Positions 4,915-57,186 of a stretch of 64,000 nucleotides of DNA are shown here, one piece after another. This DNA comes from Candidatus Dormiibacterota bacterium (GTDB taxonomy: Bacteria > Chloroflexota > Dormibacteria > Aeolococcales > Bog-877): contig JBAWFE010000027.1 of assembly GCA_049591595.1 (NCBI GenBank), positions 149,812 through 213,811 of the forward strand. The letters run 5' to 3'. Numbering within the stretch: position 1 is the stretch's first letter; the number at the start of each line of letters is the position of its first letter. The position numbers were made by a program, and so were the translations under genes. The notes below the pieces were generated by a model. It was not told the DNA's origin. It worked only from the letters and a program-made list of their open reading frames with translations, and searched no databases.

Positions 4915-4917
4915 CCG

Positions 4918-5526: not shown

Positions 5527-5643
5527 ACCGGAGCACCTCGGCGCGCATGACCTGAAGCACGAGAAGCACTCAGTCACTGCCCCGCTGTGCTGCGGGGAAA
5601 CCGACGGTCCGATCGCAGCGTTCCCTGGATCGGTATTTCGGGA

Positions 5644-6501: not shown

Positions 6502-6689
6502 GTCGACCGGAAGTCTACCGGTAAAGAAGAGCCCACGCGCATCGGTCCGAGCCCGCCTGGGCTCCGTGGCTTTCAGATCATGCCCTCGGCGTTCAGCGGA
6601 AGTACCAACAACAGGTGCCCCTCGAGTGCCCGGTACCCTGTCGGATGCGTCGCCTACCGTCGCCACACAACCGTTAGGAGAGTTGCCTC

Positions 6690-36460: not shown

Positions 36461-37432
36461 ATGTCCAAAAAGTCGATGGCCGCCCGGCGGCAGATGCGGG
36501 AGGCGGCGGCCGAGGGCCGGGTAGCCGGGTCCCGCCAGCAGACTCGCGGCCGGACCAAAGGCCGTAACTACCGCCGCAACACCTCCGGGCGGCCGTGGGG
36601 TCTGATCTCCGCAGTGGTCGGGGTGGTCGCGGTCTTCGTGATCGTGGTGGTGCTCATCGACGGCTCCGTCCAGGGCGCCTTGAAACAGGACACCCAGGTG
36701 CTGCCCGCGCCCGCATCTTTGGTGAGCGCGCTGGGTCACATTCCGGCGAAGACCCTGGACGCCGTGGCGGGGGGGAGTATCGCTAACTATCCGGTCAATA
36801 TCCCGGCCTCATACAAGCCGGTGGCGCTTAGCGCCAAGGGGCTGCCTGAGTTGGCCTTCGTCGGCGCGGAGTATTGCCCTTTCTGCGCAGTCCAGCGCTG
36901 GTCCCTGATCATTGGACTGAGCCCATTCGGCACGTGGTCGGGGTTACACATAATCCGGTCGTCGGTGTACGACACTCCGTCCAACCTGCCCACTTTCACT
37001 TTCGCCTATGGTGCGAAATTCAAGAGCAAATATCTAAACTTCTCGACCCGCGAACTCGAGAGCAACGTGTCAATAAACAAGGACGGTTCGCCCTACAAAT
37101 CCCTGCAAGCGATAACCGGCGAGCTGGAATCCGCCTTTACCAACATCGGCTCTGGGGGATACCCCTTTTTGGACTACGCCGGTAAAGTGGCCCAGGCGGG
37201 CAGCGAGGAGGGGAGCAGCTCGACCGACGTGGCCGCGTTGCAGGGCCTGAGCTGGAACCAGGTATTGACCCACTTGCGTAATAACCCCAATTCGGCGATA
37301 AGCCAGGTGGTCTTGGGCGGGGCCAACTATGTGACGGCGGCCACCTGCAGCATGACGGGCAATAAGCCCGCGGCGGTCTGCAACAGCTCGAGGATCAAGA
37401 CCCTGGAGAGTCAAGTGGCCGCGAGCGCGTGA
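36461..37432 (+). CDS. thioredoxin-fold protein with CPFC active site (DsbA-like; resembles DUF929)
   Basis: N-terminal Arg-rich cytoplasmic tail, one TM (LISAVVGVVAVFVIVVVLI), then FVGAEYCPFCAVQRWSLI (CxxC). RBS AGGAGA before the ATG. Confidence 0.5.
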   Translation: MSKKSMAARRQMREAAAEGRVAGSRQQTRGRTKGRNYRRNTSGRPWGLISAVVGVVAVFVIVVVLIDGSVQGALKQDTQVLPAPASLVSALGHIPAKTLDAVAGGSIANYPVNIPASYKPVALSAKGLPELAFVGAEYCPFCAVQRWSLIIGLSPFGTWSGLHIIRSSVYDTPSNLPTFTFAYGAKFKSKYLNFSTRELESNVSINKDGSPYKSLQAITGELESAFTNIGSGGYPFLDYAGKVAQAGSEEGSSSTDVAALQGLSWNQVLTHLRNNPNSAISQVVLGGANYVTAATCSMTGNKPAAVCNSSRIKTLESQVAASA

Positions 37433-37962
37433 GCAAATCTCGGAGTCGTCGACGGATGGTGCCGGCCACCGCCGGAGCCGACTCGGGAACTGAGCTCAGA
37501 TCCCCCGATGAGCGCTCTGAGTCGTCGCCGCTGGGGGCGGTGGCACTGGTCGTGCTCGCTCTCGTTGGAATGGGTCTTGCGGGGTACCTGACGGCGGTCC
37601 ACTATGCCCCCACGCTGTTGGTCTGCAGCAACAGCGGGGTGATCAACTGTGAGGCAGTACTGACCAGTAGCTTCTCGCTGATCCCGGGCACCTCGATTCC
37701 CATCACCGTGCCTGGGCTGGCCTTCTTCCTAGTCAGCTTGGCGCTGGCGGGGTCGCAGCTGCGTCGGCCGGAGAACTATCAGCTCCGCCAGGCCCACGCG
37801 GTGTGGGGAGGTCTGGGTCTGCTGACCGCGCTCTACTTGGTGTTTGTGGAAGTGATGGAGGTGCACAACATTTGCCTCTGGTGCTCCTGCGTGCATCTGA
37901 CCCTCCTGCTCACCTTCCTCATCACTCTATGGCGCCTCTACCCCAAGCCGAACGCCCGGTAA
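37429..37962 (+). CDS. vitamin K epoxide reductase (VKOR) family membrane oxidoreductase
   Basis: 4 TM. Loop cysteine pair CSNSGVINC and CxxC at the start of the last TM (CLWCSC). The GTG start overlaps the upstream stop (GTGA). Confidence 0.65.
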   Translation: MSKSRSRRRMVPATAGADSGTELRSPDERSESSPLGAVALVVLALVGMGLAGYLTAVHYAPTLLVCSNSGVINCEAVLTSSFSLIPGTSIPITVPGLAFFLVSLALAGSQLRRPENYQLRQAHAVWGGLGLLTALYLVFVEVMEVHNICLWCSCVHLTLLLTFLITLWRLYPKPNAR

Positions 37963-37973
37963 AACTGTGCTGG

Positions 37974-39566
37974 TCAGGGCAGGGCCCTGGCCTGGCTGGC
38001 ACAGGCGGCGATACCTCTGGACCGCCAGCTGGCCGCCGTAGGGTTGGCGGGCAGGTGCAGGGTGCTGAGCAGGCTGGTCCGCTCAAAACCCTCGACCCGG
38101 CGGTCCCGGTAGACGAGGGTCCACTCCTTCGATTGCTGAAGCGCATCCGGGAAGGCGGTGCCCCGTTCGAACACGACCACCTGGGAGGGGCTGGAGTCGA
38201 GGTTTTTGAGCCAGTTGGGGCTCAAGTCGATAATCGAGGCGTAGCGCTCCAGCAGCTGGCTGCCCATCAGCGCTGCGTCACCGAAGATGAACACCTTGTC
38301 CTTCGGCACTGAGTAAGCGAGGAAGCCACCGTCACCGTACTGGTTGAAGATGCGCAGCTGCCCCGGTGCGGAATCAAGCCACCTCGCGGCGCAGACGGGA
38401 AAGGAGTTGATGTAGGTCGAGGAGTTCAGCGCCGGGCTACCGCCGGTGTCCACCTGGACAGTCAGGAGGGCCAGTAGGAAGACGAACTCCAGCAGCTCGA
38501 CCAAAATCACCACCGGCGGCTGGCGCAGCCTCAGGTGGGGACGCCACCGTCGGGCCAGGTCAAGTCGGGCGCGGTCAGCCAGATTGATCCAGACAGGGGC
38601 GCCGGCCGCCAAGAGGAAGACACTGTTGCGTACCGACTGGAGGGTGAGGAAGAGGCTCAGGGCCAGCACTAGCCCGTCGCGCAGCGAGATCGATCGATAC
38701 CGGACCAGAAGCACCCCCAGGCTGAGGATGAAGATCAAAAGGGGGAGCAGCACCGCCGCGTGAAAGTCCGGGCTCTGCCACTCCTGGATCAGCGCCTGCT
38801 GGGCGGTGTTGAACTGTGTCTCGAAGGGGTAGGCGATGATCGCCGGTCCGTTGGGGTTGAGCAGGCATACAGCAACCGAGCAGCCGGTCGCCCATCCGAG
38901 TTGCACGATCCGATGTCGGTCTAGGGCGGACCGGCGCCGGGCCAGGACCAGGCCGCCCTCCACCACCATGATGGCCAGCAGGAAGATCAGCCCAAGGATG
39001 AATCCGGCATGCAGGTTGGACCAGATCAGGAAGATCGGGGGTAGCAGCCAGGCGGCGAACCCACCCCGCCGCAGTTGACGCTCCGCCAAGAGGAGCACCA
39101 ACGCCGTGAGCATGTATGAATCCATCTGGGAGCGCGGTCCCAGGATCGGATAGGCGGCCAGAGCTGCCAGCAGGATGCCCACCGCTAGGGTCGCGCCGTG
39201 GGCGGGTCCCAGCTCTCGGGATCGCAGCCAGATGAGCAGGAACAGGGCCAGGGTAATCAGCTCGTAGACGATCACCACACCTAAGCGGCCGGAGGCGGCG
39301 GCGACTGCCGCCATCCAGGACTCACTCAGCCACTCCTGCATCACCCAGTGGCGACCCACCGCCATGAAGGCGTACGGGTTGACGTGGATGAGAGCGTTGG
39401 TGGCCAGCAGGGTCTTGCCGTTCCGCAGGTGCCACCAGAAGTCCGGGTCCGAGACCTCGGGTCGTGCCAGGAGCATGGCCGCCAGGAGCCCACTCAGGGC
39501 GAGGAACCGAGGCAAGGTCAACCACTGGCGCCGCGTGGTCGCCCGCCTCAGCTGATCCGGTGGCAC
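37974..39566 (-). CDS. polytopic membrane protein (paralog of 34858-36411)
   Basis: DFWWHLRNGKTL / IHVNPYAF motifs, >10 TM, and a C-terminal domain PVCAARWL...YGDGGFLA...WTLVYRD matching the paralog. Confidence 0.5.
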   Translation of the reverse strand: MPPDQLRRATTRRQWLTLPRFLALSGLLAAMLLARPEVSDPDFWWHLRNGKTLLATNALIHVNPYAFMAVGRHWVMQEWLSESWMAAVAAASGRLGVVIVYELITLALFLLIWLRSRELGPAHGATLAVGILLAALAAYPILGPRSQMDSYMLTALVLLLAERQLRRGGFAAWLLPPIFLIWSNLHAGFILGLIFLLAIMVVEGGLVLARRRSALDRHRIVQLGWATGCSVAVCLLNPNGPAIIAYPFETQFNTAQQALIQEWQSPDFHAAVLLPLLIFILSLGVLLVRYRSISLRDGLVLALSLFLTLQSVRNSVFLLAAGAPVWINLADRARLDLARRWRPHLRLRQPPVVILVELLEFVFLLALLTVQVDTGGSPALNSSTYINSFPVCAARWLDSAPGQLRIFNQYGDGGFLAYSVPKDKVFIFGDAALMGSQLLERYASIIDLSPNWLKNLDSSPSQVVVFERGTAFPDALQQSKEWTLVYRDRRVEGFERTSLLSTLHLPANPTAASWRSRGIAACASQARALP

Positions 39567-39679
39567 GTCATATCCCGAGCGATCACGGGCGCCAGTGTAG
39601 GTGGGGCCGGCGGCCCCTCACTGTGGCGTCGCCTGACCAGCCCCGGGCATTTCTTTGGGCCACCACGTACCCTTTGGGC

Positions 39680-40741
39680 GTGGCCGCTCGACCCCAGTCG
39701 CCCGTCGCGTCTCCTCTCGGGGAGCTCCAGCTGGTCCTGGAGGAGGAGGTGCTCCGGGTGGAGAACGCCCTCCTCACCATCGACGAGGAGGTCATGCAGC
39801 TGCTCTCCGCCCTGGACCAGGTCGGGGACCGGCTGGAGGACTCCGACATCGTGCGCCGCCATGTCCTGCGTGACCACGCGCGCTTCACTTCCGCCGAGGT
39901 GGAGGCCGCCATCGGTCGCTGCTTCGCTTTGAGATCAGAGATGACCTTGGCTAGGCTGCGCCTCGCCCACTGTCGGAGCTGGGCGAAGGAGTTGCGCTAC
40001 TGGCACTCCCTGATGAAGGCAGCCGCCGAACAGTTGGAGGACCACCGACCTCCCGACGGCACCCTGGAGGAGGGTCTGGCGCGCTATCGAAGCGCGTCGC
40101 GGCAGGTCTTCCAGACCATCGACGAGGAGCGGATGCGGATTGCCCGGGATATGCACGACGGACCCGCTCAGTCGATGTCCAATCTGGTGCTTCGGGCCGA
40201 GATTCTCGAGCGCATGGTCGATCGGGAGCCAGAGCGGGCCAAAGCGGAGGTTCAGAGCTTCAAGGATGCGATGAAGGGGGTGTTGGACGAGACCAGACAG
40301 CTGATCTTCGACCTGCGCCCTATGACCCTTGACGACCTTGGGGTGATTCCGACTCTGCGACGGCTGGTCAACGAGTTCCGGGACGCGGAGGGGATCGAGG
40401 GCCGGCTCTCGGTGATCGGAACTGAACGGCGACTCCCGGCGGCCACCGAGGGAGCTCTCTTCCGGATCGTCAAGGAAGCTCTGGTCAACGTCCGCAAGCA
40501 CGCTCGAGCGCACAGCCTGGATGTACTAATTAATTTGCAGCCGCAGCGGGTGAGCGCGGTCATCAAGGACGATGGGGATGGCTTCGACCTAGCGGCGGTG
40601 GAGGTGCGGCTTGCTCGCGAACCACACTTCGGACTGATCTCGATGCGGGAGCGCGCCGACCTCGAGCAAGGTCAACTGGAAATCCTCTCCCAGGTCGGCC
40701 GAGGCACCGAAGTGCGAGTAACGCTGCCGATCGAACCGTGA
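39680..40741 (+). CDS. cytoplasmic sensor histidine kinase (HisKA_3 + HATPase_c, DegS/NarX-type)
   Basis: H-box RMRIARDMHDGPAQSMSNL, an N-terminal coiled coil, no TM segment, and an ATPase G-box region DDGDGF. Start uncertain (TTG 39674 or GTG 39680). Confidence 0.7.
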   Translation: MAARPQSPVASPLGELQLVLEEEVLRVENALLTIDEEVMQLLSALDQVGDRLEDSDIVRRHVLRDHARFTSAEVEAAIGRCFALRSEMTLARLRLAHCRSWAKELRYWHSLMKAAAEQLEDHRPPDGTLEEGLARYRSASRQVFQTIDEERMRIARDMHDGPAQSMSNLVLRAEILERMVDREPERAKAEVQSFKDAMKGVLDETRQLIFDLRPMTLDDLGVIPTLRRLVNEFRDAEGIEGRLSVIGTERRLPAATEGALFRIVKEALVNVRKHARAHSLDVLINLQPQRVSAVIKDDGDGFDLAAVEVRLAREPHFGLISMRERADLEQGQLEILSQVGRGTEVRVTLPIEP

Positions 40742-41176: not shown

Positions 41177-42328
41177 GTGACGACCGATTTGAAAGGACGG
41201 GTCAATCAGGTCTGGATCGCCATAGGGCTGATCCTCGCGATCCTCGCGTTCGGCGCGGCTTATTACTTCACTCGCGCCAACACCAATAACACTCGAGTGG
41301 CCCCGGCCACCGGCCAGTTGGTGGTGATCGCGAAGGTCTCGATCCCCAGCGGTACGCTGATCACCGCCGGCATGCTCGAGGAGACCCGGATCAAGGGTCT
41401 GCTACCCCTCGATTCGTACAGCTCGTGTGTGCAACTCGTGCGCACCGCCTGTGCTGCAACTGCCGGTGTGTCGGCATCGCAGTCGACGTCAACCTCCGCC
41501 TCGGACTATTACGCCGTCGTTCCGATCACCCCCAACACGGTGATCACTCAGAACAACGTCTCCGTAAACCGAGCAACCCAGTCACCATCTTTCGGCAACT
41601 TGAATCTGCCGGCTGGTGAAGTTGCCGTGGCTATTCCGATTACCGCCGCGGAGTCGGTCGCCGGCTACCTCCAGGTGGGTGACCGGATTGACATCATCGG
41701 TCTTGACTCGAGCGGAAACACCGACTTCACCTTCGAGGACCTTCCGGTGATCAGCATCGGATCTCCGTCGACGGCGACCGGGGCAGCGAGCAGCTCGTCA
41801 GGCGGCGGACTGATCGTTCTTCAGCTGACGCGCAGCGAGGCCCTTGGCGTGACCGAGATGGTCAACGACGGTTCCATATACACGATCGCGCTGCGGTCCA
41901 GTGCGGACTACGGCCACGGCTACATTCCGATCACTTCGACGCCGGCTGACGAGTACACCCAGGCCTGCGTGGCGGGGAGCTCCGTCAACCCGATCATCCA
42001 AGAGGACATGCAGACGGCTCAGCTGTCGGTCACGGCGGCGTCCAAGACCTACACCACCGCCCACAAGCAATACAACAAGGACAACACCGCGCTGCAGAGC
42101 ATGTCGGGCACCGGCTCGGCCGAGCAGGCCGCCAAGGCCCAAGTGCTCACGGATGCGGCCACCTTGGCCCAGGATCAGTTCGCCCTGATCGAGGCCCAGA
42201 ATGAGCTGGCTTCCGACCAAGCGGTCCTGTACTGCGGATCCACCAATGCCGCCAGCTCGTCATCGTCGGCGGGCAACAATTCCGGTAGCTCGCAGATGCT
42301 GCAGAACCTCTTTGGCTTCAAACCCTGA
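41177..42328 (+). CDS. cpaB: CpaB/RcpC-family Flp pilus assembly protein with C-terminal extension
   Basis: N-terminal TM (WIAIGLILAILAFGAAYYF) then a SAF-like region QLVVIAKVSIPSGTLITAGML. ~150 aa extra C-terminal coiled coil and Ser-rich tail. Confidence 0.6.
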   Translation: MTTDLKGRVNQVWIAIGLILAILAFGAAYYFTRANTNNTRVAPATGQLVVIAKVSIPSGTLITAGMLEETRIKGLLPLDSYSSCVQLVRTACAATAGVSASQSTSTSASDYYAVVPITPNTVITQNNVSVNRATQSPSFGNLNLPAGEVAVAIPITAAESVAGYLQVGDRIDIIGLDSSGNTDFTFEDLPVISIGSPSTATGAASSSSGGGLIVLQLTRSEALGVTEMVNDGSIYTIALRSSADYGHGYIPITSTPADEYTQACVAGSSVNPIIQEDMQTAQLSVTAASKTYTTAHKQYNKDNTALQSMSGTGSAEQAAKAQVLTDAATLAQDQFALIEAQNELASDQAVLYCGSTNAASSSSSAGNNSGSSQMLQNLFGFKP

Positions 42329-42367: not shown

Positions 42368-43627
42368 GTGAGCACCACGGTGGCGGATAAGACCGTCATC
42401 CGCGTGGTGGTGGTCGACGACATCGCCAGCACCCGAGAGAACCTCAAGAAGTTGCTCTCCTTCGAGGAGGACATTGAGGTTGTCGGGACCGCTGGCGATG
42501 GCCGGACCGGCATCGACGTGACCCGGCAACTCTCGCCGCACGTGGTGCTGATGGACGTCAACATGCCGGGAATGGACGGGATCGCCGCGACTGAGACCCT
42601 GGCAGTGGAATCGCCCAACTCCCCGGTCGTGATCATGTCCGTCCAGGGGGAGCGGGACTACCTGCGCCGCGCGATGCAGTCGGGTGCTCGGGAGTTCCTC
42701 ATCAAGCCCTTCACCGGCGACGAGCTGGTGTCCAGCATCCGCCGGGTCTACGAGATGGAGGAGAAGAAGGGATCCTACCTGCCGCGCCAGCCTCCCCCCC
42801 AGGAGCAGGTAGGCGACCTGCCCCCAACCGGTTGCCAGGTGTGTCTGGTTCTCAGCGGGAAGGGGGGCTGCGGCAAGACCTTCTTGGCCATCAACCTCGC
42901 CGCCGCCCTGCGGACGGAGACGGGCGGTCGGGTCTGCCTGGTCGATCTCGATCTCCAGTTCGGCGACATCGGCGTGATGCTCAATTTGGACCACGCCAAG
43001 ACGATCACCGAACTGGTGGACAGCGAGAGTGCGTTGGACTGGGAGTTCGTCGACGACATCCTGGCCGATGGTCCAGAGGGGATTCGGGTCCTGCTGGGTC
43101 CCTTCAGCCCGGAGTTCGGGGACCTAGTCCGGGCGGAGCATGTGCGCGCCATCGTCGACGTTCTGCGACGAGAGTTTGACTATGTCGTCGTGGACAGTGG
43201 GAGCCAACTATCGGAGGCTACCCTCGAAGCAACCGAGTTGGCCGATCACGTGATCGTGGTCGGTGAGCTCACTATTCCCGCGATCAAGGACACTCGCCTG
43301 ATGCTGAAGATGCTGGAGTCGCTCAAAGTGGACCGCTCGCGGGTCATGGTCGCGGTCAACGCCCATGACGCGCATGCCGTCTATGACGCAGCCAGCATCG
43401 AGCGCAATCTGCGGTTCCCGGTCAAGCTGCAGATACCCTCGGAGCCTCGCCTGGTGGGCGGATCGATCCATCGGGCGATCCCGCTGGTCGTCTCCCACCC
43501 GGATTCCGACATCTCCTTGCTCTTCCGCAACCTGGCCCGAAGCCTGGCACCGGAAGGGGCAGCTCAGCCTGAACTCAAGGCCGAGGCCAAGGCGCCCACC
43601 GCCCGTCGCTTCGGGCTTCGGCGCTAG
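42368..43627 (+). CDS. tadZ: TadZ/CpaE: response-regulator receiver fused to a MinD/ParA-like ATPase
   Basis: REC domain with an intact phospho-acceptor region (VVVDD...VVLMDVNMPGMDG...FLIKPF), then a deviant Walker A LSGKGGCGKTFLAINLAAAL. Confidence 0.75.
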   Translation: MSTTVADKTVIRVVVVDDIASTRENLKKLLSFEEDIEVVGTAGDGRTGIDVTRQLSPHVVLMDVNMPGMDGIAATETLAVESPNSPVVIMSVQGERDYLRRAMQSGAREFLIKPFTGDELVSSIRRVYEMEEKKGSYLPRQPPPQEQVGDLPPTGCQVCLVLSGKGGCGKTFLAINLAAALRTETGGRVCLVDLDLQFGDIGVMLNLDHAKTITELVDSESALDWEFVDDILADGPEGIRVLLGPFSPEFGDLVRAEHVRAIVDVLRREFDYVVVDSGSQLSEATLEATELADHVIVVGELTIPAIKDTRLMLKMLESLKVDRSRVMVAVNAHDAHAVYDAASIERNLRFPVKLQIPSEPRLVGGSIHRAIPLVVSHPDSDISLLFRNLARSLAPEGAAQPELKAEAKAPTARRFGLRR

Positions 43628-43653: not shown

Positions 43654-45225
43654 ATGTCACTGCTGGAGAGAGTTCGGACCAAGGACGGATCGGAGCCGGA
43701 GCCCGGCCCCGAAGTGTCCGCGCCAGTCGAGGAGAAGCCCAAGGCCAGGACGCCTGAGCCGGCAGCTGCGGCCCCCCCCGCTCCACCTCCCGCTGCTCCT
43801 TCTCGCCTAGCGGCCGCCCTGGCTGCCGCCAAGCCTCCGGCCGTAGCCGCCCCGGCCAAGTCGCCAGGATGGCGGGAGCGGTCCCAGACCAATCGGGAGA
43901 ACCCCTCGGCGGTGGTCGAGCCCCGGGCGGCTCATCACCCGCAGTACATGTCGATCAAGGCGCGGGTGACCCAGGCCCTACTGGAGGAGTACACCGACGT
44001 CTCCCAGGCGCCCCGCGAGCGGTTGGTCGCCAAGATCGGGGAGCTCTGCAATTCGGTCCTGGAAGAGCTGAGCATTTCGATCACCCGCACCGATCGGCAG
44101 CGGATGGTGGAGCAGCTGATCAGCGACGTGCTCGGCCTGGGCCCGCTGGAGATGATTCTCAAGGACCCGGAGATCAGCGAAATCATGATCAACGGCCCGG
44201 AGGATGTCTACGTCGAGCGCCAGGGAAGGATCTATCGCTACCCGGCCAAGTTCGACAACACGGACCACCTGATGCAGATCATCGACCGGATCGTCAGCTC
44301 GATCGGACGCCGAGTCGATGAGAGCTCGCCGATGGTGGACGCCAGACTCAAAGACGGCTCCCGGGTCAACGTGATCATCCCGCCGCTGGCGCTCCAGGGA
44401 CCGACTTTGACCATCCGGCGCTTCTCCAAGGACCCCTACACGGTGGAGGATCTGATCAACTTCGGAACTCTCACCGCTGAGATGGCGACGTTCATCCGGG
44501 CCTGCGTGCGGGCCAGGTTCAACGTGCTGATCTCAGGAGGCACCGGGTCCGGTAAGACGACCACTCTGAACGTGCTCTCCGGCTGGATCCCCGACGACGA
44601 GCGGATCATCACAATTGAGGACGCAGCCGAGTTGCAGCTGCGCCAAGACCACGTTGTGACCCTGGAGTCGCGCCCCTCCAACATCGAGGGCCGAGGACGG
44701 GTCAGCATTCGTGATCTGGTCATCAACAGCCTGCGGATGCGGCCGGATCGGATCGTCGTCGGTGAGTGTCGGGGAGGTGAGGCCCTGGATATGCTCCAGG
44801 CGATGAACACAGGCCACGACGGCTCACTTACCACTGTTCACGCCAACACTCCAGCCGACGCTTTGACCCGACTGGAGACCATGACGTTGATGGCCGGCAC
44901 CGACCTCCCGTCGCGGGCCATCCGCGAGCAGATCGCGTCGGCTATCCACCTGGTGGTTCAGCAAGCTCGCCTTCGCGATGGCACCCGGCGCATCATCGCC
45001 ATCTCCGAAGTCCGGGGCTTCGACGGGGAACGGGTCGAGATCGCGGACATCTTCCAGTACCGCCAGAAGGGCCTCGATGACCAGGGGATGGTGATCGGCC
45101 AGTTCGAAGCGGTCCAGGTTCCCAAGCGCCTCGATGATCTGGCCGCCGCTGGCGAGGGGTTGGAGGAATCGCTGTTTGCTCCTCCTTCCAAGGGCAAAAT
45201 AGCAGCAGGAGAGACCGCCGCATGA
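43654..45225 (+). CDS. tadA: CpaF/TadA secretion ATPase (VirB11/PilB superfamily) with Pro/Ala-rich N-terminal extension
   Basis: Walker [24 protein letters not shown], Asp/His boxes [17 protein letters not shown]. ~130-aa low-complexity N-terminus. Confidence 0.9.
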   Translation: MSLLERVRTKDGSEPEPGPEVSAPVEEKPKARTPEPAAAAPPAPPPAAPSRLAAALAAAKPPAVAAPAKSPGWRERSQTNRENPSAVVEPRAAHHPQYMSIKARVTQALLEEYTDVSQAPRERLVAKIGELCNSVLEELSISITRTDRQRMVEQLISDVLGLGPLEMILKDPEISEIMINGPEDVYVERQGRIYRYPAKFDNTDHLMQIIDRIVSSIGRRVDESSPMVDARLKDGSRVNVIIPPLALQGPTLTIRRFSKDPYTVEDLINFGTLTAEMATFIRACVRARFNVLISGGTGSGKTTTLNVLSGWIPDDERIITIEDAAELQLRQDHVVTLESRPSNIEGRGRVSIRDLVINSLRMRPDRIVVGECRGGEALDMLQAMNTGHDGSLTTVHANTPADALTRLETMTLMAGTDLPSRAIREQIASAIHLVVQQARLRDGTRRIIAISEVRGFDGERVEIADIFQYRQKGLDDQGMVIGQFEAVQVPKRLDDLAAAGEGLEESLFAPPSKGKIAAGETAA

Positions 45226-47174: not shown

Positions 47175-47637
47175 TTCGGCTCCGGCGAACACCGCCGGTC
47201 CCCGTTCGCGAACGGTGGTGGTGCGCGCCGCCGACGGCGCGGTGGTGGCCCGTCGGGTGACCGTGGCGGATCGCTTCGGACCCCGCCTGATGGGGCTGAT
47301 GGGTCGCGCCCAGCTCGACCCTGACGAGGGACTGTGGCTGGTGCCGTGCAACAGTGTTCACATGTTCTTCATGCGGACCCCGTTGGACATTGCCTATCTC
47401 GACCGCCAGCTGCGGGTGGTGCGCTGCGTGCCGGAGATGCGGGAATGGCAGGTCAAGCTGCTGCCGGTGCGGCATGCGCATAGCGCCCTCGAGCTGGCCC
47501 CGGGCACCCTGCGTCGCACGGGAGTCAGCGAGGGCGATGAGCTAAAGATAGGGTCGGAGCCCGCGAGTGTCGCGGAGTTAGCCCCGGAGATGTCCGGCAC
47601 CGGTTCAGCGGTGTTCAGTTCCAGTGTCAGGGAGTAG
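47164..47637 (+). CDS. DUF192 (COG1430) domain protein
   Basis: GLMGRAQLDPDEGLWLVPCNSVHMFFMRTPLDIAYLDRQLRVV ... ALELAPG follows the DUF192 consensus. It overlaps tadC by 11 nt. Confidence 0.55.
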   Translation: MSPNSAPANTAGPRSRTVVVRAADGAVVARRVTVADRFGPRLMGLMGRAQLDPDEGLWLVPCNSVHMFFMRTPLDIAYLDRQLRVVRCVPEMREWQVKLLPVRHAHSALELAPGTLRRTGVSEGDELKIGSEPASVAELAPEMSGTGSAVFSSSVRE

Positions 47638-47640
47638 TCA

Positions 47641-48834
47641 ATGAGTCCGGTCCTTACCGAAGAAGAGAGGCTGCAAGGCATGGAGGGATACCTCCAGGCC
47701 CTCGGTCCGCTGCGGGTTCTAGTGGAAGATGACAGTCTCACCGAGATCATGGTCGTCGGTCCGGACATGGTGTACGTGGAGGCCCAGGGCAAGATCGTGC
47801 TCACCGACGTCCGCTTCCGCGACAACGAGCATCTCCTCAAGGTGATCGACCTGATCGTCGCCGCGGTCGGACGCCGCGTTGACGTTCGTCAGCCACTCTG
47901 TGACGCACGTTTGCTGGACGGCTCCCGCGTCAACGCGGTGGTGCCCCCGGTGTCTATCGACGGACCAATTCTGACCATCCGTAAGTTCGCCAAAGAGCGC
48001 CTGCGGATCACCGACCTGATCCATTTCGGCACCATCGATGAGGCGGGTGCATCGTTCATGCAGGCCTGCGTGCTGGCCCGCGCGAACATCCTCATCTCGG
48101 GAGGCACCGGCGCCGGCAAGACGACGCTGCTGAACATCTGCTCAGGCTTCATTCCTCCCGACGAGCGCATCGTCACCATCGAGGACGCCGCAGAGCTGCA
48201 GATGCACCAGGAGCATGTCTGTCGGCTGGAGTCGCGTCCCCCGGACGTGCGTGGCGAGGGCCGGATCAACATCCGCGACCTGGTCATCAACGCCCTCCGG
48301 ATGCGACCTGATCGAATTGTGGTCGGTGAGGTTCGAGGCGGTGAGGCTCTGGACATGCTTCAGGCCATGAACACGGGCCATGACGGCTCCATGACCACCG
48401 TCCACGCCAACACCCCTCGAGACAGTCTCTCCCGTCTGGAGACCCAGGTATTGATGGGTGGCGTGGAGCTGCCCTCGAAGGCGATTCGTCAGCAGATCTC
48501 CAGCGCCATCGACATCATCGTGCAGCTCAACCGCCTCCGCGACGGCAGCCGTCGGATCACCGCGATCAGCGAGGTGGTCGGGATGGAGGGCGACACGATC
48601 ACGATGCAGGACATCTTCGTGATGAAGGCCGAGGGCATGGATCAGCAGGGCAACCTGAAGAATGAGTTCGAGCTGACCGGGGTCAGGCCGCAGATCCTCG
48701 ACCGTCTCTTCGACATGGGCTTGGCGGTTCCACCCGAGATCTCAAGGCTCTTCCCGGACCGGCGCACCGACCAGGTGGCGGCGATCAAGTTGCCGACACC
48801 ACCCCCCGGTCCATTGCAGAGGCGTCTTGGCTGA
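47641..48834 (+). CDS. second CpaF/TadA-like secretion ATPase paralog (N-terminally shorter, 397 aa)
   Basis: [40 protein letters not shown]. ~80% nt identity to the tadA core over ~100 nt (44758-44850 vs 48319-48420). Confidence 0.85.
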
Positions 48835-49666
48835 TGTCCGGACTCGGCGGGGGGCGGTAACCCGCCGACTCGCAAAGGGGTTCGGTGGCGTCTTTTTGGG
48901 GGCAATCCTGACTTTGACGCTGCCCGGCCTCCTGGCGGCCCCCGTGTTTGCCCAAACACCAGGCAGTGGAACTGGGTACAACGAAGAGCTAGTCAGTCTC
49001 ACCAACAACGACCGCACCAGTAACGGATTGGCGGCCCTGGCGGAGAACGGCGCCCTCGACGACATCGGAGAGAGTGGGGATTACGGTGGCTGCTCTCGAC
49101 CTATCTACGGACGGGCGGACGACATGATCACCAATGACTACTTCTCCCACGTCATTCCGGGATGCAGCGCCGACGGGGGCTACGTCTGGCCGATCATGTC
49201 GGCGTACGGAGTCGATTTCAGTTCAGCAGGCGAGAATGTCGGCTGGAACAGCGGCTACGCGGACCCGGCGGCCGGGGTGAACACCCAGTTCATGGACTCC
49301 GCTCCCCACCGGGCAAACATCCTGGGGGCATTTGACGAGCTTGGAGTCGGGTCCTGGTACACCTCAAGCTCCTGGAACTACCCGGGCAGCGGTGGCGGAC
49401 CCTGGACCGGCGTCTACATGTTCGCCGAGGAGTTCGCCCAGGTCGGCGGGTACACTCCGCCTCCGTCGTCGGGTGGCGGAGGTGGTGGCGGTGGTGGCGG
49501 TACGGCACCTAGCCCACCGGCAACGCCGGCTCCCACTCCGGTCCCGACCCCGACTCCCACCCCGAAGCCCCCTCCGCCCGGAGTGGGGTCAAAGTCGCCG
49601 AAGCTGGCCCAGGGATTGCTATCCAGCACAATTGACCAGGTGATCAGCAGCTACCTAGATGAGTGA
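48827..49666 (+). CDS. secreted CAP/SCP/PR-1-domain protein with Gly10 + Pro/Thr-rich linker
   Basis: Signal peptide (...LLAAPVFAQT), a CAP core (NNDRTSNGLAAL ... GENVGWN ... HRANIL) and GGGGGGGGGGTAPSPPATPAPTPVPTPTPTPKPPPPG. Confidence 0.6.
   Translation: MADVRTRRGAVTRRLAKGFGGVFLGAILTLTLPGLLAAPVFAQTPGSGTGYNEELVSLTNNDRTSNGLAALAENGALDDIGESGDYGGCSRPIYGRADDMITNDYFSHVIPGCSADGGYVWPIMSAYGVDFSSAGENVGWNSGYADPAAGVNTQFMDSAPHRANILGAFDELGVGSWYTSSSWNYPGSGGGPWTGVYMFAEEFAQVGGYTPPPSSGGGGGGGGGGTAPSPPATPAPTPVPTPTPTPKPPPPGVGSKSPKLAQGLLSSTIDQVISSYLDE
49468..49582 (+). repeat. low-complexity Gly10 / (Pro-Thr)n coding repeat
   Basis: ggtggcggaggtggtggcggtggtggcggt... followed by ccgac/ccgactcc-type PT repeats. 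Confidence 0.7.
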
Positions 49667-50474
49667 GGCGCCCGCCCCAGTCGAAAAGGGCGAGGTGGCA
49701 GGCCAGGCAGTGTTGGAAGCGACGGGACTTCACAAGAGCTTCTCCATCAGCAAGACCCCTCACGAAGTGGTTCGCCAGGTCTCACTGACGGTCAACCCCG
49801 GGGAGTTCTTCGCGGTGATGGGCCCCAGTGGATGCGGCAAGTCGACGCTGCTGAACATGCTCGGTGGGCTGGAAGCTCCCGACCAGGGCAAGGTGGTGGT
49901 AAGGGGGACCGATCTCTACTCCTTGAGCGAAGGCGAAAGGGCGGCGTTCCGACGTCGGCAGATCGGGTTCATCTTCCAGTTCTTCAACCTGCTCCCCAGC
50001 CTGACGGCCGCCGAGAACGTGATGCTGCCCTACCGCTTGGAGCGCAATCGCGCGTGGCCGCTGCGAGGGCTGGGACGAGACCGAGACGCGCGGGCCCGGG
50101 CCCACGATCTGATGGCGATGCTGGGGCTGAAGGGGCTGCAGGGACACCGACCTGACGAGATTTCTGGTGGTGAGCAGCAGCGGGTCGCGGTCGCCCGGGC
50201 CCTAGTCTCCGACCCGGCCATCCTGCTGGCGGACGAGCCCACCGGTACCTTGGACTACCACGCCGGTCGAGGCGTGCTGGAGCTGTTGCTGCGGCTGAGT
50301 CGGCAGGAGGGTCGGACCATCGTCCTGGTGACCCACGACGTCCGGACCGCCGCCTACGCCGAACGGGTGGCGATCATGCTCGACGGGGAGTTCAAGGAGG
50401 TGGTGCGGTTGGGTCACCGGACAGTTCACGACACCGCCCCACTGCTGGAAAGGCTCGGGACTCATGGTCTCTGA
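49659..50474 (+). CDS. ABC transporter ATP-binding protein (MacB/LolD/FtsE-like)
   Basis: [37 protein letters not shown]. 8-nt overlap with the CAP gene (ATGAGTGA). Confidence 0.9.
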   Translation: MSEAPAPVEKGEVAGQAVLEATGLHKSFSISKTPHEVVRQVSLTVNPGEFFAVMGPSGCGKSTLLNMLGGLEAPDQGKVVVRGTDLYSLSEGERAAFRRRQIGFIFQFFNLLPSLTAAENVMLPYRLERNRAWPLRGLGRDRDARARAHDLMAMLGLKGLQGHRPDEISGGEQQRVAVARALVSDPAILLADEPTGTLDYHAGRGVLELLLRLSRQEGRTIVLVTHDVRTAAYAERVAIMLDGEFKEVVRLGHRTVHDTAPLLERLGTHGL

Positions 50475-53007: not shown

Positions 53008-54474
53008 GTGACCGCAGTGCCCGAGGAGGGGAGCCTAGAGGATCTGCTGGGCAACCGCGGCCGCCGGCTGCGGCGCCTGGTGTTGCTGGTCTCCCTGGGC
53101 TGTGTATTGGGGCTGGCCGCTTTCGCCATGCCTCACGAGTTTCCCCCCCGTCCGGGCGGACTGGCCTCCGACTACCGCGTCTTCTACGCAGCCGGTCAGC
53201 TGATCGCCAAAGGTGTGAACCCCTACCACCTCGGCACTCTTCAGGCGGCTGAGCAGGCGGCATACCGGTACCCGGGCCTGAACGCGGTCCTGGACAGCTT
53301 CGTGGATCCTCCGATCGCAGCCTGGGTGCTGGTGCCGCTGTCCCACCTTCCGTTCTGGGTCAGCTACGCCCTGCTCAGCGCCTTGGGCTTGATCTTGATG
53401 GTGCTCACAGCCACCTTGCTGGCGCGGGATCTCGGCTGGCGACACACGGGCATTCTGGCGGCGGCTGTGGTCTGCTCTTGGATCGGACTGCTGGGGTTGA
53501 TTGACGGTCAGTTCGATGCAATCCTCTTCGCGGCCCTGGCCGGCTCGATGCTCTTGGCTTGGCACGAGCGTAGCCTGGCCGCAGGATTGGTCTTGGGGCT
53601 GACCTTGCTGAAACCCACCTTGCTCTGGCCCGTCCCGATCTTCATGTTTCTGGCGCTCTGGCCGGACCGCCGGCGGGCTGTTCACTTCGCCGCCGGGTTC
53701 GTGTTGGTGGCCGCGGGTTTCCTGCTCGCCAGCGGGACCTGGCTCGGTTCATGGTGGCACCAGTTGAGCGTGTTTGGGGGGGCGATCGGGACGCAGCAAC
53801 CGGACCTCTCCGGTCTTCCCGGACTGCTCGGGGCAGCGCCGCACTCATGGCGGCTGGGCACGGGGTTGAGCTCGCCAACCACGATCGGACTGGTGGTTCT
53901 GGCCCTGGCATCGATGGTGGTCTTCGCTGTCTGGATGATGTTCTCTCCGGACTGGCGTCGGGTGAGCCCCGTGGGTCGGGTCACCTGGGCGGTTGCCCTG
54001 CCGGTCGGAATCTGGCTGCTGGCGATTCCCTACGCCCATCCCAACGACGACCTGTTGCTGCTGCCGCTGTTCATGCTGACGGTCGGTCGCGATGCACGAC
54101 GGGTCCATGGGCTAGGACTCGGCCTCTCGGCGGCAACGCTGGTGCTGCTCTTGCTCATCTGGCCGGCTAACGTCGTTCCTTGGCCAGCTGGATTGCTGGC
54201 GCTGGCGCTGCTCTCGGCCGCGGTCTGGCATTGGCGGACCGACATCCGACTGACCGGCTTCGGGGCGGGCCTATGCGTCCTGGCCTTGGCGACCCTGCCC
54301 CCGGTCTGGAGCTTTCACCTACTCGCGGTCGGCCTGACTCCGATCGCGGTACTTATCGTGGTGGTGGAGGGTGCGCGAACCTGTTGGATGGAGGTCGGCG
54401 GCGCGGGCACCGGCCCTGCTTACTTCGAAGAGCCTAGTGCGCTGGGGATTGCCCAGCCGGTAGGCGGGGCATAA
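53008..54474 (+). CDS. GT87/DUF2029-family polytopic membrane glycosyltransferase (polyprenol-P-sugar dependent type)
   Basis: DYRVFYAAGQLIAKGVNPYH matches the DUF2029/GT87 loop motif. >10 TM. Confidence 0.5.
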   Translation: MTAVPEEGSLEDLLGNRGRRLRRLVLLVSLGCVLGLAAFAMPHEFPPRPGGLASDYRVFYAAGQLIAKGVNPYHLGTLQAAEQAAYRYPGLNAVLDSFVDPPIAAWVLVPLSHLPFWVSYALLSALGLILMVLTATLLARDLGWRHTGILAAAVVCSWIGLLGLIDGQFDAILFAALAGSMLLAWHERSLAAGLVLGLTLLKPTLLWPVPIFMFLALWPDRRRAVHFAAGFVLVAAGFLLASGTWLGSWWHQLSVFGGAIGTQQPDLSGLPGLLGAAPHSWRLGTGLSSPTTIGLVVLALASMVVFAVWMMFSPDWRRVSPVGRVTWAVALPVGIWLLAIPYAHPNDDLLLLPLFMLTVGRDARRVHGLGLGLSAATLVLLLLIWPANVVPWPAGLLALALLSAAVWHWRTDIRLTGFGAGLCVLALATLPPVWSFHLLAVGLTPIAVLIVVVEGARTCWMEVGGAGTGPAYFEEPSALGIAQPVGGA

Positions 54475-54486
54475 TCCACTGAAGTA

Positions 54487-57186
54487 ATGAGTGTCTTCAG
54501 TCGGATCTACGACCCCACCCGCCGCGAGGTCCGCCGTCACACCGGCGAAGTGGAGGAGATTGGCGAGGTCGGAGAGGAGCTCAAGCCCCTATCGGACGAC
54601 GAGCTGCGGGCCAAGACTGACGAGTTCAAGGGCCGCCTCGAGGAGGGTGAGACCCTCGACGACCTCCTCGTCGAGGTCTTTGCGGTAGCTCGAGAGGCGG
54701 CCCAGCGTCACGTCGGGATGCGACCCTTTGACGTGCAGTGCCTGGGGGGCATTGTCCTGCACCAGGGGAAGATCGCCGAGATGAAGACCGGCGAGGGAAA
54801 GACGTTGGTGGCGGCCCTGCCCCTCTACCTGAACGCCCTGTCGGGAAGAGGCTGCTTCTTGGTCACCGTCAATGACTTTCTGGCTCGCCGTGACGCCGGC
54901 TGGAACGCCCCGATGTTCCATGCCCTGGGGATGCAGGTAGGGGTGATCATCCCCGACCAATCTCTGGTCTATGACCCGGAGTACACCGACGAGGCGCATA
55001 GCGATGTGCGGCTTCGGCACCTGCGACCGGTGTCGCGTGGCGAGGCGTATCAGGCAGATGTCGTGTACGCCACCAACAACGAGATGGGATTCGACTACCT
55101 GCGCGACAACCTCGCCAGGTCGCTCGACCAGAAGGTGCAGCGAGACCGCTACTTCGCGATCATCGACGAAGTCGACTCGATCCTCATCGACGAAGCTCGC
55201 ACGCCTCTGATCATCAGCGGACTGGGTGAAGAAGCGCCGGAAAAATACTACCAATACGCGCGACTTATTCCCCGGCTGACGGCGGAGGTCGACTACACCA
55301 TCGACGAGAAAACCAAGTCGGGAAGCCTCACTGACGAGGGGATCGAGAAGATCGAGCGGATGACCGGGGTGGCCAACATTTATGACATCGAGCATGTGGA
55401 GGAGGCGCACCACATCAACCAGGCCTTGCGGGCCCACGCGCTCTACCTCAAGGACCGCGAGTACATCGTTCGGGATGGCGAGGTGGTGATCGTCGACGAA
55501 TTCACTGGACGCACCATGCCCGGCCGACGGTGGTCGGACGGTCTGCACCAGGCGATCGAGGCCAAGGAGGGGGTCAAGGTACAGCAGGAGCAGCGGACGC
55601 TGGCCACTGTGACTTTCCAGAACTACTTCCGCACCTTCGAAGTGCTGGCCGGGATGACCGGGACGGCCATCACCGAGGCGGAGGAGTTCCACAAGATCTA
55701 CCGCCTGGAGGTGGTGCCGATACCGACCAACAAGCCGATGGTGCGACTCGACGAACCGGACCTCATCTTCCGCTCGGAGGAGGTCAAGTTCAAGGCCATC
55801 GCCGACGAGATTGAGGAGCGTAGCCGGAAGGGTCAGCCGGTGCTGGTGGGCACGGTGAGTATCGAGAAGAGCGAGCGCCTCTCGCGACTCCTGGAGAAGC
55901 GGGGCGTCACCCACGAGGTTCTCAACGCCAAGCAGCACGAACGCGAGGCCGAGGTGGTGGCGGCGGCAGGTCAGCGGTCAGCGGTAACCATCGCCACCAA
56001 CATGGCCGGTAGGGGTACTGACATCGTGCTCGGGCAGGGTGTCCAGGAGCTGGGCGGTCTCTACATCATGGGTACCGAAAGACATGAGTCACGGCGGATC
56101 GACAACCAGCTGCGAGGCCGTGCGGGACGACAGGGTGACCGCGGTGAGAGTCGCTTCTTCCTCTCCTTTGAGGATGACCTGATGCGCGTGTTCGGTGGGG
56201 AGCGGATGCGGGGATTGATGGCGCGGTTCGGAATGGACGAGGACGTGCCCATCGAATCCGGAATGGTCAGTCGCCAGATCGAGTCGGCGCAGTCACGGGT
56301 GGAGGGCGCCAACTTCGATAGTCGACGTTACGTCGTTGAATTCGATGACGTGGTCAACATGCAACGCGCCATCATCTACGCAGAGCGGGACCGAATCCTG
56401 GAAGGTGTCGACACCCGCGACAACATCAATCAGTGGACCGAAGAAGTTGTCCGGGACCTGATCACGGTCTATTGCCCCGGCCGACACCAAGCCCAGTGGG
56501 ACCTGGATGGGCTGTGGAATCGTCTGCGCTACGTTTTTCCCTTCCCACCTGCTGAGGAGGTCGAACTAGAACAGCTCGGCGAAAGCCCGGAAGAGGTGAC
56601 CGACACCCTGATCCACGAGGCAGAGCGCCTCTATACGGAGAAGGAGGCGCTCTACACCGAGGACGTGGTGAGGATTGCCGAGACGCAGCTAATGCTGCAG
56701 TTGATCGACCAACGGTGGGCGGACTATCTCACCACTCTGGAACATCTCAAGGATGACATCCGCTGGCAGTCGTTGGGTCAGCGAGACCCGCTCGTCGAGT
56801 TCAAGGCTGAGGCCTTCTCCGCTTTCTCGTCCTTCCAGGAGTCGCTCAAGCAGGAGATCGTCCGCTACCTGTTCCATGCGGAGATCCAGGTCACCCCAGC
56901 GGAGGCAGCCCCGCTCGAGGGGGTGGCTGTGCATCCTGATGCAGGACGGCCCGGAGAGGTCGGCTCCGATCCTAGGGCCATGCTGACGAATCCCGCTTCC
57001 TTGGAGGAGGCGCCCCAAGCGGTGGCCGGGCCACCAGCCAGGTCGATGACTAGTCCTAGCCAGCCCCTCCGCAGCGGTGCGACAGCTCAGGTAGCCGCGG
57101 CCGGCGGGGCTCCAGTCAGCCGCAATGCTCTTTGTCCATGCGGTTCTGGCCGTAAGTACAAGCGGTGCCACGGAGCGACCGAATGA
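54487..57186 (+). CDS. secA: preprotein translocase ATPase SecA
   Basis: DEAD-motor motifs (MKTGEGKT, IIDEVDSILIDEARTPLIIS, TNMAGRGTDI). C-terminal zinc-binding CPCGSGRKYKRCHG. Confidence 0.97.
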   Translation: MSVFSRIYDPTRREVRRHTGEVEEIGEVGEELKPLSDDELRAKTDEFKGRLEEGETLDDLLVEVFAVAREAAQRHVGMRPFDVQCLGGIVLHQGKIAEMKTGEGKTLVAALPLYLNALSGRGCFLVTVNDFLARRDAGWNAPMFHALGMQVGVIIPDQSLVYDPEYTDEAHSDVRLRHLRPVSRGEAYQADVVYATNNEMGFDYLRDNLARSLDQKVQRDRYFAIIDEVDSILIDEARTPLIISGLGEEAPEKYYQYARLIPRLTAEVDYTIDEKTKSGSLTDEGIEKIERMTGVANIYDIEHVEEAHHINQALRAHALYLKDREYIVRDGEVVIVDEFTGRTMPGRRWSDGLHQAIEAKEGVKVQQEQRTLATVTFQNYFRTFEVLAGMTGTAITEAEEFHKIYRLEVVPIPTNKPMVRLDEPDLIFRSEEVKFKAIADEIEERSRKGQPVLVGTVSIEKSERLSRLLEKRGVTHEVLNAKQHEREAEVVAAAGQRSAVTIATNMAGRGTDIVLGQGVQELGGLYIMGTERHESRRIDNQLRGRAGRQGDRGESRFFLSFEDDLMRVFGGERMRGLMARFGMDEDVPIESGMVSRQIESAQSRVEGANFDSRRYVVEFDDVVNMQRAIIYAERDRILEGVDTRDNINQWTEEVVRDLITVYCPGRHQAQWDLDGLWNRLRYVFPFPPAEEVELEQLGESPEEVTDTLIHEAERLYTEKEALYTEDVVRIAETQLMLQLIDQRWADYLTTLEHLKDDIRWQSLGQRDPLVEFKAEAFSAFSSFQESLKQEIVRYLFHAEIQVTPAEAAPLEGVAVHPDAGRPGEVGSDPRAMLTNPASLEEAPQAVAGPPARSMTSPSQPLRSGATAQVAAAGGAPVSRNALCPCGSGRKYKRCHGATE

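Follow-up and report, generated by a model that had tools for sequence, protein, structure and literature searches.

A long and a short CpaF ATPase with complementary residue losses in Dormibacterota Tad loci: a candidate split of the bifunctional pilus motor

How one CpaF ATPase can both extend and retract a Tad pilus is a live question, on which two structural papers disagree and for which a 2026 preprint proposes that the motor ring inverts. A 64,000-nucleotide stretch of the genome of a Candidatus Dormiibacterota bacterium (GenBank assembly GCA_049591595.1, contig JBAWFE010000027.1, positions 149,812 to 213,811; hereafter the window) poses the question in another form, as its tad locus encodes two CpaF/TadA-family ATPases: a long one of 523 residues, here called CpaF1, and a short one of 397 residues, CpaF2. 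The original prediction, made from the letters of this window alone, stated that a retraction ATPase is not a recognised part of Tad systems in monoderms, and Tad pili are indeed listed without one (PMC6920026, Table 1). A single bifunctional TadA is still described in recent papers (bioRxiv 10.64898/2026.07.08.737194), and our literature searches found no account of a paired long and short CpaF. We propose, with a probability of roughly 0.5, that a bifunctional, inverting Tad motor may here have been split into an extension motor (CpaF1) and a PilT-like retraction motor (CpaF2). Both genes are intact, conserved and co-inherited, and their motif losses are complementary.

Complementary residue losses in the two ATPases

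The published mechanism of CpaF from Caulobacter crescentus (Cc) serves as the yardstick. Residues 1-79 of this protein are disordered and residues 80-149 form a three-helix N-terminal domain 1 (NTD1; PMC11300603). In a survey of 292 CpaF orthologues, a three-helix bundle, an N-terminal domain and a catalytic domain (3HB-NTD-CAD) made up the minimum architecture in all phyla (PMC12019362). The N-terminal face contacts the platform through α5 (189-200), loop 8 (201-212; G204, R205, R206 and D208) and an extended pore loop (325-337, with E331 and G334; PMC12019362). Under the ring-inversion proposal, this face is on the platform for extension and the C-terminal face is on it for retraction, the elements of the latter being the N-terminus of α11 (P386/R387), the β13-β14 turn and a C-terminal motif (bioRxiv 10.64898/2026.02.24.707734). 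The same preprint reports that R387A or a C-terminal mCherry fusion blocks pilus retraction in C. crescentus, that orthologues predicted to be extension-only are degenerate at the C-face elements, and that the CpaF turn superposes on the AIRNLIRE motif of PilT. It further describes PilT as having no N1 domain and binding PilC via its C-terminal domain, and models the N1 domain of CpaF as clashing with the platform's N-termini in the retraction orientation (bioRxiv 10.64898/2026.02.24.707734).

We aligned 97 CpaFs from loci and then 233 homologue clusters (113 of CpaF1 and 120 of CpaF2), using Cc CpaF numbering and assigning residues to faces as in the papers cited above. Position 387 is arginine in 76/76 single CpaFs, in 119/120 CpaF2 clusters and in 5/113 CpaF1 clusters; the other CpaF1 clusters carry variable residues there (A, S, H, Q, N, T, G, V and others), and all nine CpaF1 proteins from Dormibacterota loci have A, S, H or V. 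The β13-β14 turn has the consensus G-M-E-G-D/E in single CpaFs and reads GFDG or GYDG in the CpaF1 family (the two turns of the window are given in Table 1). Turn-region entropy is 1.21 in CpaF1 versus 0.28 in CpaF2, and 1.18 across whole phyla. Loop 8 of CpaF1, on the other face, is nearly frozen at an entropy of 0.23.

On the N-terminal face it is CpaF2 that has changed. N329 of the pore loop has become D in 120/120 CpaF2 clusters, and E331 has become R in 115 of them and H, S or N in the rest, never staying E. Both N329 and E331 are present in 113/113 CpaF1 clusters, and among single CpaFs N is found in 95% and E in 96%. The CpaF1 of the window keeps the two residues, as N343 and E345, together with a loop 8 that reads GRRVDESSP. 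This loop is commonly GRRxDESSP in single CpaFs, GRRVDESSP in 104/113 CpaF1 clusters and GRRxDxRQP in CpaF2, where S210R occurs in 117/120.

An unbiased scan covered the 121 columns with a conservation of 90% or more in single CpaFs; it found columns 226, 387, 442 and 443 to be lost in CpaF1, and columns 166, 214, 228, 329, 331 and 468 in CpaF2. Of the four CpaF1 losses, three lie among the eight columns that are conserved in the two retraction motifs (hypergeometric P = 7.5e-4). The contact residues of both faces occur together in neither paralog: CpaF1 is without R387 and the turn, and CpaF2 is without N329, E331 and DESSP.

Read against the published CpaF mutagenesis and models, this complementary loss of face-specific motifs argues for a split between extension and retraction. 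CpaF1 would dock on TadB/TadC by its N-terminal face (α5, loop 8 and pore loop) and drive polymerisation of Flp pilin, since the residues of its C-terminal face that the retraction orientation requires have gone. CpaF2, with NTD2 and the ATPase domain only, would dock by its C-terminal face and drive depolymerisation; it is without the N1 domain, its ancestral pore-loop residues have been replaced, with a charge reversal at E331R, and its C-face is held under strong constraint. That an N1-less CpaF would not be an assembly motor is consistent with Cc CpaF Δ1-146, which fails to support pilus-dependent phage infection, with a caveat over expression (PMC11300603). The original prediction had drawn its extension/retraction split from the usual habit of paired ATPases in type IV filament systems; the loss of face motifs now lends that split specific and independent support, and the platform-binding face and direction of work of each paralog are what we infer from it. 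Subfunctionalisation of an ancestral bifunctional motor would be the simplest reading.

It is barely credible that the two proteins are redundant or condition-specific isoforms of one bifunctional motor with no division of labour. They share 58% amino-acid identity over 356 residues and a common catalytic core, and cases of several tadA paralogs at separate loci are on record, such as tadA2 and tadA3 of Bdellovibrio (bioRxiv 10.64898/2026.07.08.737194). Such isoforms, however, do not account for reciprocal losses that have become fixed where single CpaFs are 95-100% conserved, for domain architectures that differ, or for the retention of both genes in one string across the phylum.

Integrity, descent and distribution of the pair

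The open reading frame (ORF) of cpaF2 encodes an intact CpaF/TadA ATPase (Pfam T2SSE, E = 1.4e-58), as had been proposed, and the Walker A, Asp-box and His-box motifs cited for it are found in the translation. When searched with phmmer against the Protein Data Bank (PDB), it finds its closest solved relative in C. crescentus CpaF (E ~1e-121). Both paralogs match that protein at ~1e-118 to 1e-122 and other families much more weakly (FlaI/GspE at 1e-36 to 1e-38, VirB11 at 1e-31, PilT at ~1e-9), the match of CpaF2 to PilT/PilU reaching 1e-8 to 1e-10 only. Both are therefore nearest to CpaF/TadA rather than to PilB, PilT, GspE or VirB11, and in neighbour-joining trees CpaF2 clusters among CpaFs and not in the PilT/PilU clade. 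The top Foldseek matches of the CpaF2 model are 8RJF, to which it is 52% identical, and 9E24. No AIRNLIRE-like string occurs in CpaF2. The genomic context is that of a tad locus, with an Flp pilin, TadZ/CpaE, TadB and TadC, and an equivalent order in orthologous loci.

The alignment of CpaF2 spans residues 134-489 of Cc CpaF. Its AlphaFold 2 (AF2) model, with a mean predicted local distance difference test score (pLDDT) of 77.5, has a single N-terminal helix (7-20) followed by NTD2 and the ATPase domain, a PilT-like two-domain layout without an N1 domain. The description of this copy as lacking the N-terminal domain holds for the disordered region and two of the three NTD1 helices, which are gone; one helix (7-20) and the whole of NTD2 are kept. 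A mis-called start was considered and ruled out: a longer ORF is impossible, as the reading frame is closed by a TAG at 47635-47637, 6 nt upstream of the ATG, and there is a Shine-Dalgarno sequence, AGGGAG, with its end 6 nt from the start codon. The 120 CpaF2 homologue clusters are likewise 355-398 residues long. CpaF1 aligns to residues 11-477 of Cc CpaF, and its AF2 model (mean pLDDT 73) is disordered to residue ~93, with helices at 98-112, 121-138 and 145-160 ahead of NTD2 and the ATPase domain. The Pro/Ala-rich N-terminal extension that had been noticed in this copy is thus present, predicted to be disordered over residues 1-93 and followed by a three-helix bundle at 98-160. The 3HB-NTD-CAD minimum is found whole in CpaF1 and incomplete in CpaF2.

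CpaF2 also carries a C-terminal tail (residues ~364-397, window 48730-48831) that is basic, proline-rich and predicted to be disordered, and CpaF1 has no such tail. The tail motif RLFP(D/E)RR recurs in locus L091 and in the protein P0248, with a related RLFPKN in P0324, and the tail could be a docking peptide. Among the other short matches of the representative search, only P0248 and P0324 are of CpaF2 type; P0323 and P0325 were rejected, as they appear to be ordinary CpaFs whose gene calls are frameshifted or cut short.

All catalytic residues were found in both copies: neither family varies in Walker A (42 sequences drawn from the two), the Asp box, the Walker B Glu, the Arg residues or the His box, and the invariant pattern includes NTGH.GS..T.H.N. 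The nonsynonymous rate (dN) of cpaF2 is the lowest among the genes of the operon, with dN/dS at 0.04-0.23, ratios that are rough since the synonymous rate (dS) is saturated. A recent duplicate or pseudo-paralog, the counter-case that the original prediction had itself named, can be ruled out on the strength of 65% nucleotide identity between the copies, saturated third positions, intact catalytic motifs, the lowest dN and the existence of at least 120 clusters. The same evidence bears on whether CpaF2 is a regulator or brake, which would compete with CpaF1 or cap the platform and do no mechanical work of depolymerisation. The absence of the N1 domain and of the ancestral pore-loop residues would suit such a role, as would the two-component control of the locus by a histidine kinase and a receiver-TadZ fusion. 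Yet the catalytic residues are invariant down to the Walker B Glu and the arginines, and purifying selection over the whole ATPase domain is very strong, which argues that CpaF2 is an active enzyme and makes a mere brake very improbable.

The two paralogs diverged long ago, to judge by a nucleotide identity of 65% over 990 core bases and 51.5% at third codon positions; the figure of ~80% given for them earlier was wrong. Nor are they strictly in tandem, as had been said: they belong to one gene string, but loosely, with cpaF2 placed 2.4 kb downstream of cpaF1 and tadB, tadC and a DUF192 gene in between. Orthologues of CpaF2 show higher conservation than those of CpaF1 (94 vs 83%, 88 vs 75%, 84 vs 73% and 70 vs 63%). 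Neighbour-joining trees built on 318 core columns with 100-200 bootstraps recover a CpaF1 clade (77%) and a CpaF2 clade (81-93%, or 96% when locus L016 is included), and the supposed in-locus duplication is not borne out by them: the two clades are never sisters (0-3% bootstrap), in trees whose backbone is without support. The sequence data would fit an origin by duplication as well as one by transfer. From the largely congruent branching orders within the two clades it follows that the pair was already inherited together before the divergence of the sampled lineages.

Every Dormibacterota-type locus whose flanks are long enough, 11 loci in all, has both a long and a short copy, in keeping with the view of the pair as old and conserved across Dormibacterota. 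The order long cpaF-tadB-tadC-DUF192-short cpaF is shared by the window and loci L002, L081, L083, L085, L087 and L088, whose CpaF2 proteins are 65-94% identical to that of the window. The pair is loosened in L090 and L091, where unrelated genes lie between tadC and DUF192 and a gene of ~225 codons lies between DUF192 and the short cpaF; the long copy of these loci is 59-68% identical to CpaF1. L001 and L019 are rearranged, with short and long cpaF still neighbours but convergent and no tadB, tadC, Flp or TadZ gene within 21 kb. In these two loci (L001, 3259-13916) the pair is adjoined by two ParA-like genes and a gene for a highly acidic repeat protein of 969 residues. The short protein is represented by at least 120 homologue clusters at 70-100% identity, nearly all of the taxon-labelled ones from Dormibacterota, and the sources returned for this lineage were uncultured metagenome-assembled genome (MAG) and metagenome sequences only. 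Proteins of the window have counterparts of 100% identity in MAGs of Candidatus Dormibacterota. Several cluster representatives at 57-96% identity to window proteins bear other names in public MAG records ("Candidatus Micrarchaeia archaeon", "Verrucomicrobiae", "Nanopelagicaceae", "Candidatus Angelobacter" or "Solibacter"), which points to mis-binned or mislabelled contigs.

Outside the phylum the arrangement was not encountered. A second CpaF-like ORF within ±10 kb was present in none of the 76 tad loci that represent other phyla, among them Chloroflexota, Bacillota, Actinomycetota, Acidobacteriota and Planctomycetota; these outgroup loci came from a contig scan dominated by the generic DMLQAMNT pattern, and the Dormibacterota loci were fetched singly. 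The original prediction had counted it against itself should two cpaF genes be the norm in close relatives. Inside the phylum they literally are, yet with 0/76 loci elsewhere this shows conservation and not triviality. A Chloroflexota CpaF-like subfamily of 431-475 residues (L004, L031 and L042-L044) has divergent loop 8 and pore loops, such as TKPPNFDGSGG. Its genes adjoin one for a protein of 178-235 residues that matches the REC-TadZ (receiver-TadZ) query, and no recognisable tadB/tadC lies within 10 kb of them.

CpaF modules are also found joined in single polypeptides. Two- and three-module proteins were recognised by motif (P0140-P0148 and P0182, of 803-881 residues, and P0242-P0250), one match having four stretches. 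The two-module fusions that were inspected consist of a full 3HB-NTD-ATPase CpaF followed by an N1-less NTD2+ATPase module, and most fusion modules are without R387. These fusions arose at least twice, separately from the Dormibacterota pair, a hint that in other uncultured lineages the splitting route was taken as well, and thus more than once. They also bear on a different arrangement, in which CpaF1 and CpaF2 form one hetero-oligomeric motor of stacked or mixed rings with CpaF2 as its obligatory second module. In a stacked version, CpaF1 could present its N-face at one end and CpaF2 its C-face at the other, the stack inverting as a unit. The fusions mirror this arrangement in joining a full CpaF to an N1-less module, in one case (L089, 10001-12499) as an 832-residue double CpaF upstream of a gene of 353 codons, a VWA protein gene, tadB and tadC. 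The C-modules of the P0140 family share N329D with CpaF2, and the 1:1 linkage of the pair survives the rearrangement in L001 and L019. On the other hand, the halves of the fusions fall outside the CpaF1 and CpaF2 groups (in P0147, the N and C modules pair as sisters with 100% bootstrap), most fusions have lost R387 from both modules, unlike the pair, and a ring stacked on the C-face of CpaF1 would leave the loss and retention of R387 unexplained unless the stack inverts. We regard a joint motor as unlikely, though it deserves to be kept in view.

Several points weigh against a split of extension and retraction between CpaF1 and CpaF2. The evidence for their functions is comparative, and the inversion model with which it is read comes from a preprint based on AlphaFold 3 (AF3) models and mutagenesis, in which the R387A mutant still took up some labelled pilin (bioRxiv 10.64898/2026.02.24.707734). 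The β13-β14 turn was put at 440-445 by inference from sequence and from the place of H463 in loop 26. Only two of the six CpaF2 losses lie in extension motifs (P = 0.125, not significant alone), and CpaF2 is also without G468, a residue inside the C-terminal motif tied to retraction (bioRxiv 10.64898/2026.02.24.707734). Its N-face changes amount to a new conserved state and not to decay, so that face may still bind something, and the natural fusions suggest that a pair of modules can work within a single complex and need not swap. Finally, the short copy follows TadE/TadG-like genes in L016 and L086, with no long copy visible on the short flank available.

CpaF2 might instead power another process, either assembly of a TadE/TadG minor-pilin tip or pseudopilus, or export together with CAP-like and ABC/FtsX proteins. 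The short copy of L086 and L016 comes immediately 3' of the TadE/TadG-like genes, and the pore loop of CpaF2 has the new conserved state D329/R331. In the window, the cpaF2 stop overlaps the start of a CAP-like gene, with ABC and FtsX genes next. This block stands 3' of cpaF2 in L081-L087, L091, L001 and L019 as well, but it is absent there in L002 and L088. No second T2SSF platform gene accompanies CpaF2 in any locus, no homologues of the L086 or L016 TadE/TadG proteins occur in the window or the other loci, and the CpaF1-specific loss of retraction-face residues would be left unexplained. We consider such a separate role quite improbable. A split of the inverting motor between CpaF1 and CpaF2 would explain that loss, and it remains the reading that we favour.

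The tad locus and its other genes

The tad genes lie in a co-directional string on the + strand at 39.5-57.2 kb of the window, the GC content of which is ~65% (Table 1). Adjacent genes overlap or are separated by at most 39 nt, except for gaps of 100-130 nt on either side of the Flp gene; the tadB start, for instance, overlaps the cpaF1 stop by 4 nt. A promoter and terminator scan of 40.5-57.5 kb gave no more sites than shuffled sequence, and the operon call rests on gene spacing. The string contains no secretin gene, and Dormibacterota have been placed in a monoderm clade with Chloroflexi and the Candidate Phyla Radiation (bioRxiv 10.1101/2021.05.31.446380). By a crude motif test, the prepilin peptidase motif G.GD.K is absent from all ORFs of the window, and tRNA and Rfam scans of the window returned no matches. 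The Flp pilin sequence contains ...G/MVEYALILVLIAIVV....

Table 1. Genes of the tad string and motif codons of the two CpaF ATPases, in window coordinates
Feature	Position	Strand	Evidence or remark
HisKA_3-type sensor histidine kinase	39464-40741	+	Pfam HisKA_3 2.7e-18 + HATPase_c; heads tad locus
Flp-type major pilin, 67 aa	40869-41072	+	Pfam Flp_Fap 3.7e-10
CpaB/RcpC-like protein	41177-42328	+	Pfam RcpC 1.4e-9 + SAF domain
Response-regulator receiver domain fused to ParA/MinD-like CpaE/TadZ ATPase	42368-43627	+	Pfam Response_reg 6e-28; AAA_31, ParA, CbiA
CpaF1, long Tad ATPase, 523 aa	43654-45225	+	CpaF-family alignment + AF2 model
CpaF1 codon A401 (= Cc R387, N-terminus of α11, C-terminal face)	44854-44856	+	
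CpaF1 β13-β14 turn, G455-F-D-G-E459, degenerate vs G-M-E-G-D	45016-45030	+	columns 442 and 443 lost
TadB/CpaG platform protein, 343 aa	45222-46253	+	Pfam T2SSF 1.4e-17
TadC/CpaH platform protein, 305 aa	46257-47174	+	Pfam T2SSF 1.1e-20
DUF192 protein, 157 aa	47164-47637	+	Pfam DUF192 1.5e-19
CpaF2, short Tad ATPase, 397 aa	47641-48834	+	Pfam T2SSE 1.4e-58
CpaF2 Walker A, G154-GTGAGKT-T162	48100-48126	+	invariant G154, T156, G157, G159, K160, T161, T162
CpaF2 pore-loop codons D202-V-R204 (= Cc N329-L-E331)	48244-48252	+	platform-contact loop, N-terminal face
CpaF2 codon R260 (= Cc R387), kept	48418-48420	+	R in 119/120 clusters
CpaF2 β13-β14 turn, G314-M-E-G-D318, consensus kept	48580-48594	+	GMEG[DE] in 119/120
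Secreted CAP-like protein	48827-49666	+	weak Pfam CAP match, 0.016
ABC ATPase	49659-50474	+	Pfam ABC_tran
FtsX-type permease, 836 aa	50490-53000	+	Pfam FtsX
GT87 glycosyltransferase	53008-54474	+	Pfam
SecA	54487-57186	+	

The histidine kinase gene has an equivalent position in L081, L083, L085, L087, L090 and L091; its coordinates are those of the longest ORF, and as orthologues are called at 314-365 residues the true start is probably more downstream. No separate response regulator adjoins the kinase, and the TadZ/CpaE protein carries an N-terminal receiver domain, a fusion that is common in the tad loci of Chloroflexota and Bacillota. The combination of kinase and receiver-TadZ suggests phosphorylation control of the placement or assembly of the pilus machine.

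The DUF192 protein looks like an unrecognised accessory component of Tad loci. BLAST matches to it were found in 26 of the 76 tad loci of other phyla, 18 of them no more than 1.5 kb downstream of tadC; the loci with DUF192 after tadC include L003, L005-L007 and L009, and their phyla include Bacillota, Chloroflexota, Acidobacteriota and others. We found no paper in the literature that ties DUF192 to Tad pili.

Downstream of cpaF2, the overlap with the CAP-like gene amounts to 8 nt. The CAP-like product has a Gly/Pro-rich tail, and the genes for the ABC ATPase, FtsX, GT87 and SecA follow without real gaps. It is uncertain whether the CAP/ABC/FtsX block is part of the Tad system. Upstream of the locus, at 36461-39566, the window encodes DUF929 and VKOR-family proteins (+) and then a multi-pass membrane protein of 530 residues (-), for which no Pfam match was found. 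VKOR and DUF929 genes also lie directly 3' of the short cpaF in L086, which implies an inversion between lineages. In that locus (197-6953) a LamG-domain protein gene, which has no homologue in the window, also precedes the short cpaF; the corresponding region of L016 is 1-3026.

Significance and comparison with known motors

As judged from its sequences, the Dormibacterota Tad machine is a phylum-wide variant with a long and a short motor that have complementary conserved surfaces. Slightly short of an even chance, we would say, the PilB/PilT solution was independently re-invented here, the two faces of an inverting CpaF having been partitioned by duplication into two motors. If a split of extension and retraction is true, the pair would offer comparative evidence for the inversion model that is independent of Caulobacter, as well as a natural pair of separation-of-function alleles. 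It would mean that evolution can lead from "class III" to "class I" motors, that dedicated retraction motors had a second, recent origin, and that textbooks need revision where they state that a retraction ATPase is absent from Tad pili. It would further imply dynamic pili in Dormibacterota, an abundant soil phylum.

The closest known system is that of C. crescentus, whose CpaF is a single "class III" inverting motor (PDB 8RJF, 8RKD, 9E24-9E29). Both window proteins are of the CpaF family, and the locus has the same Flp pilin, CpaB, CpaE/TadZ and split TadB/TadC platform. CpaF1 shares the four-part build of Cc CpaF, namely disordered region, three-helix bundle, N-terminal domain and catalytic domain. 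Unlike C. crescentus, the Dormibacterota have two ATPases per locus, neither of which keeps the conserved residues of both faces, and CpaF2 departs from the CpaF norm in falling below the minimum reported for all phyla (PMC12019362).

The pair also resembles PilB and PilT of type IVa pili, the exchangeable, dedicated "class I" ATPases, in combining a long N1-bearing ATPase with a short one made of an N2 and a C-terminal domain, and the short copy, like PilT, keeps a conserved C-terminal-face element. CpaF2 nevertheless matches PilT at only ~1e-9, against 1e-121 for CpaF, and has no AIRNLIRE motif. If real, the split would be an independent and much later duplication within the Tad/archaeal-type clade, serving a TadB/TadC platform and not PilC.

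CpaF1 by itself is reminiscent of the "single-orientation" CpaFs, such as that of Corynebacterium diphtheriae, in its degenerate α11 N-terminus (P386/R387) and β13-β14 turn (bioRxiv 10.64898/2026.02.24.707734). That type is described with one ATPase and would, by inference, not retract, whereas the degenerate CpaF1 is partnered by a copy that keeps those residues. More than one TadA-family gene per genome is known as well from Bdellovibrio, with tadA2 and tadA3, and from Vibrio vulnificus, with three tad loci. Those paralogs are described in separate or duplicated modules, such as rcpA-tadA, and not as a long and a short copy of one operon with complementary losses on their two faces.

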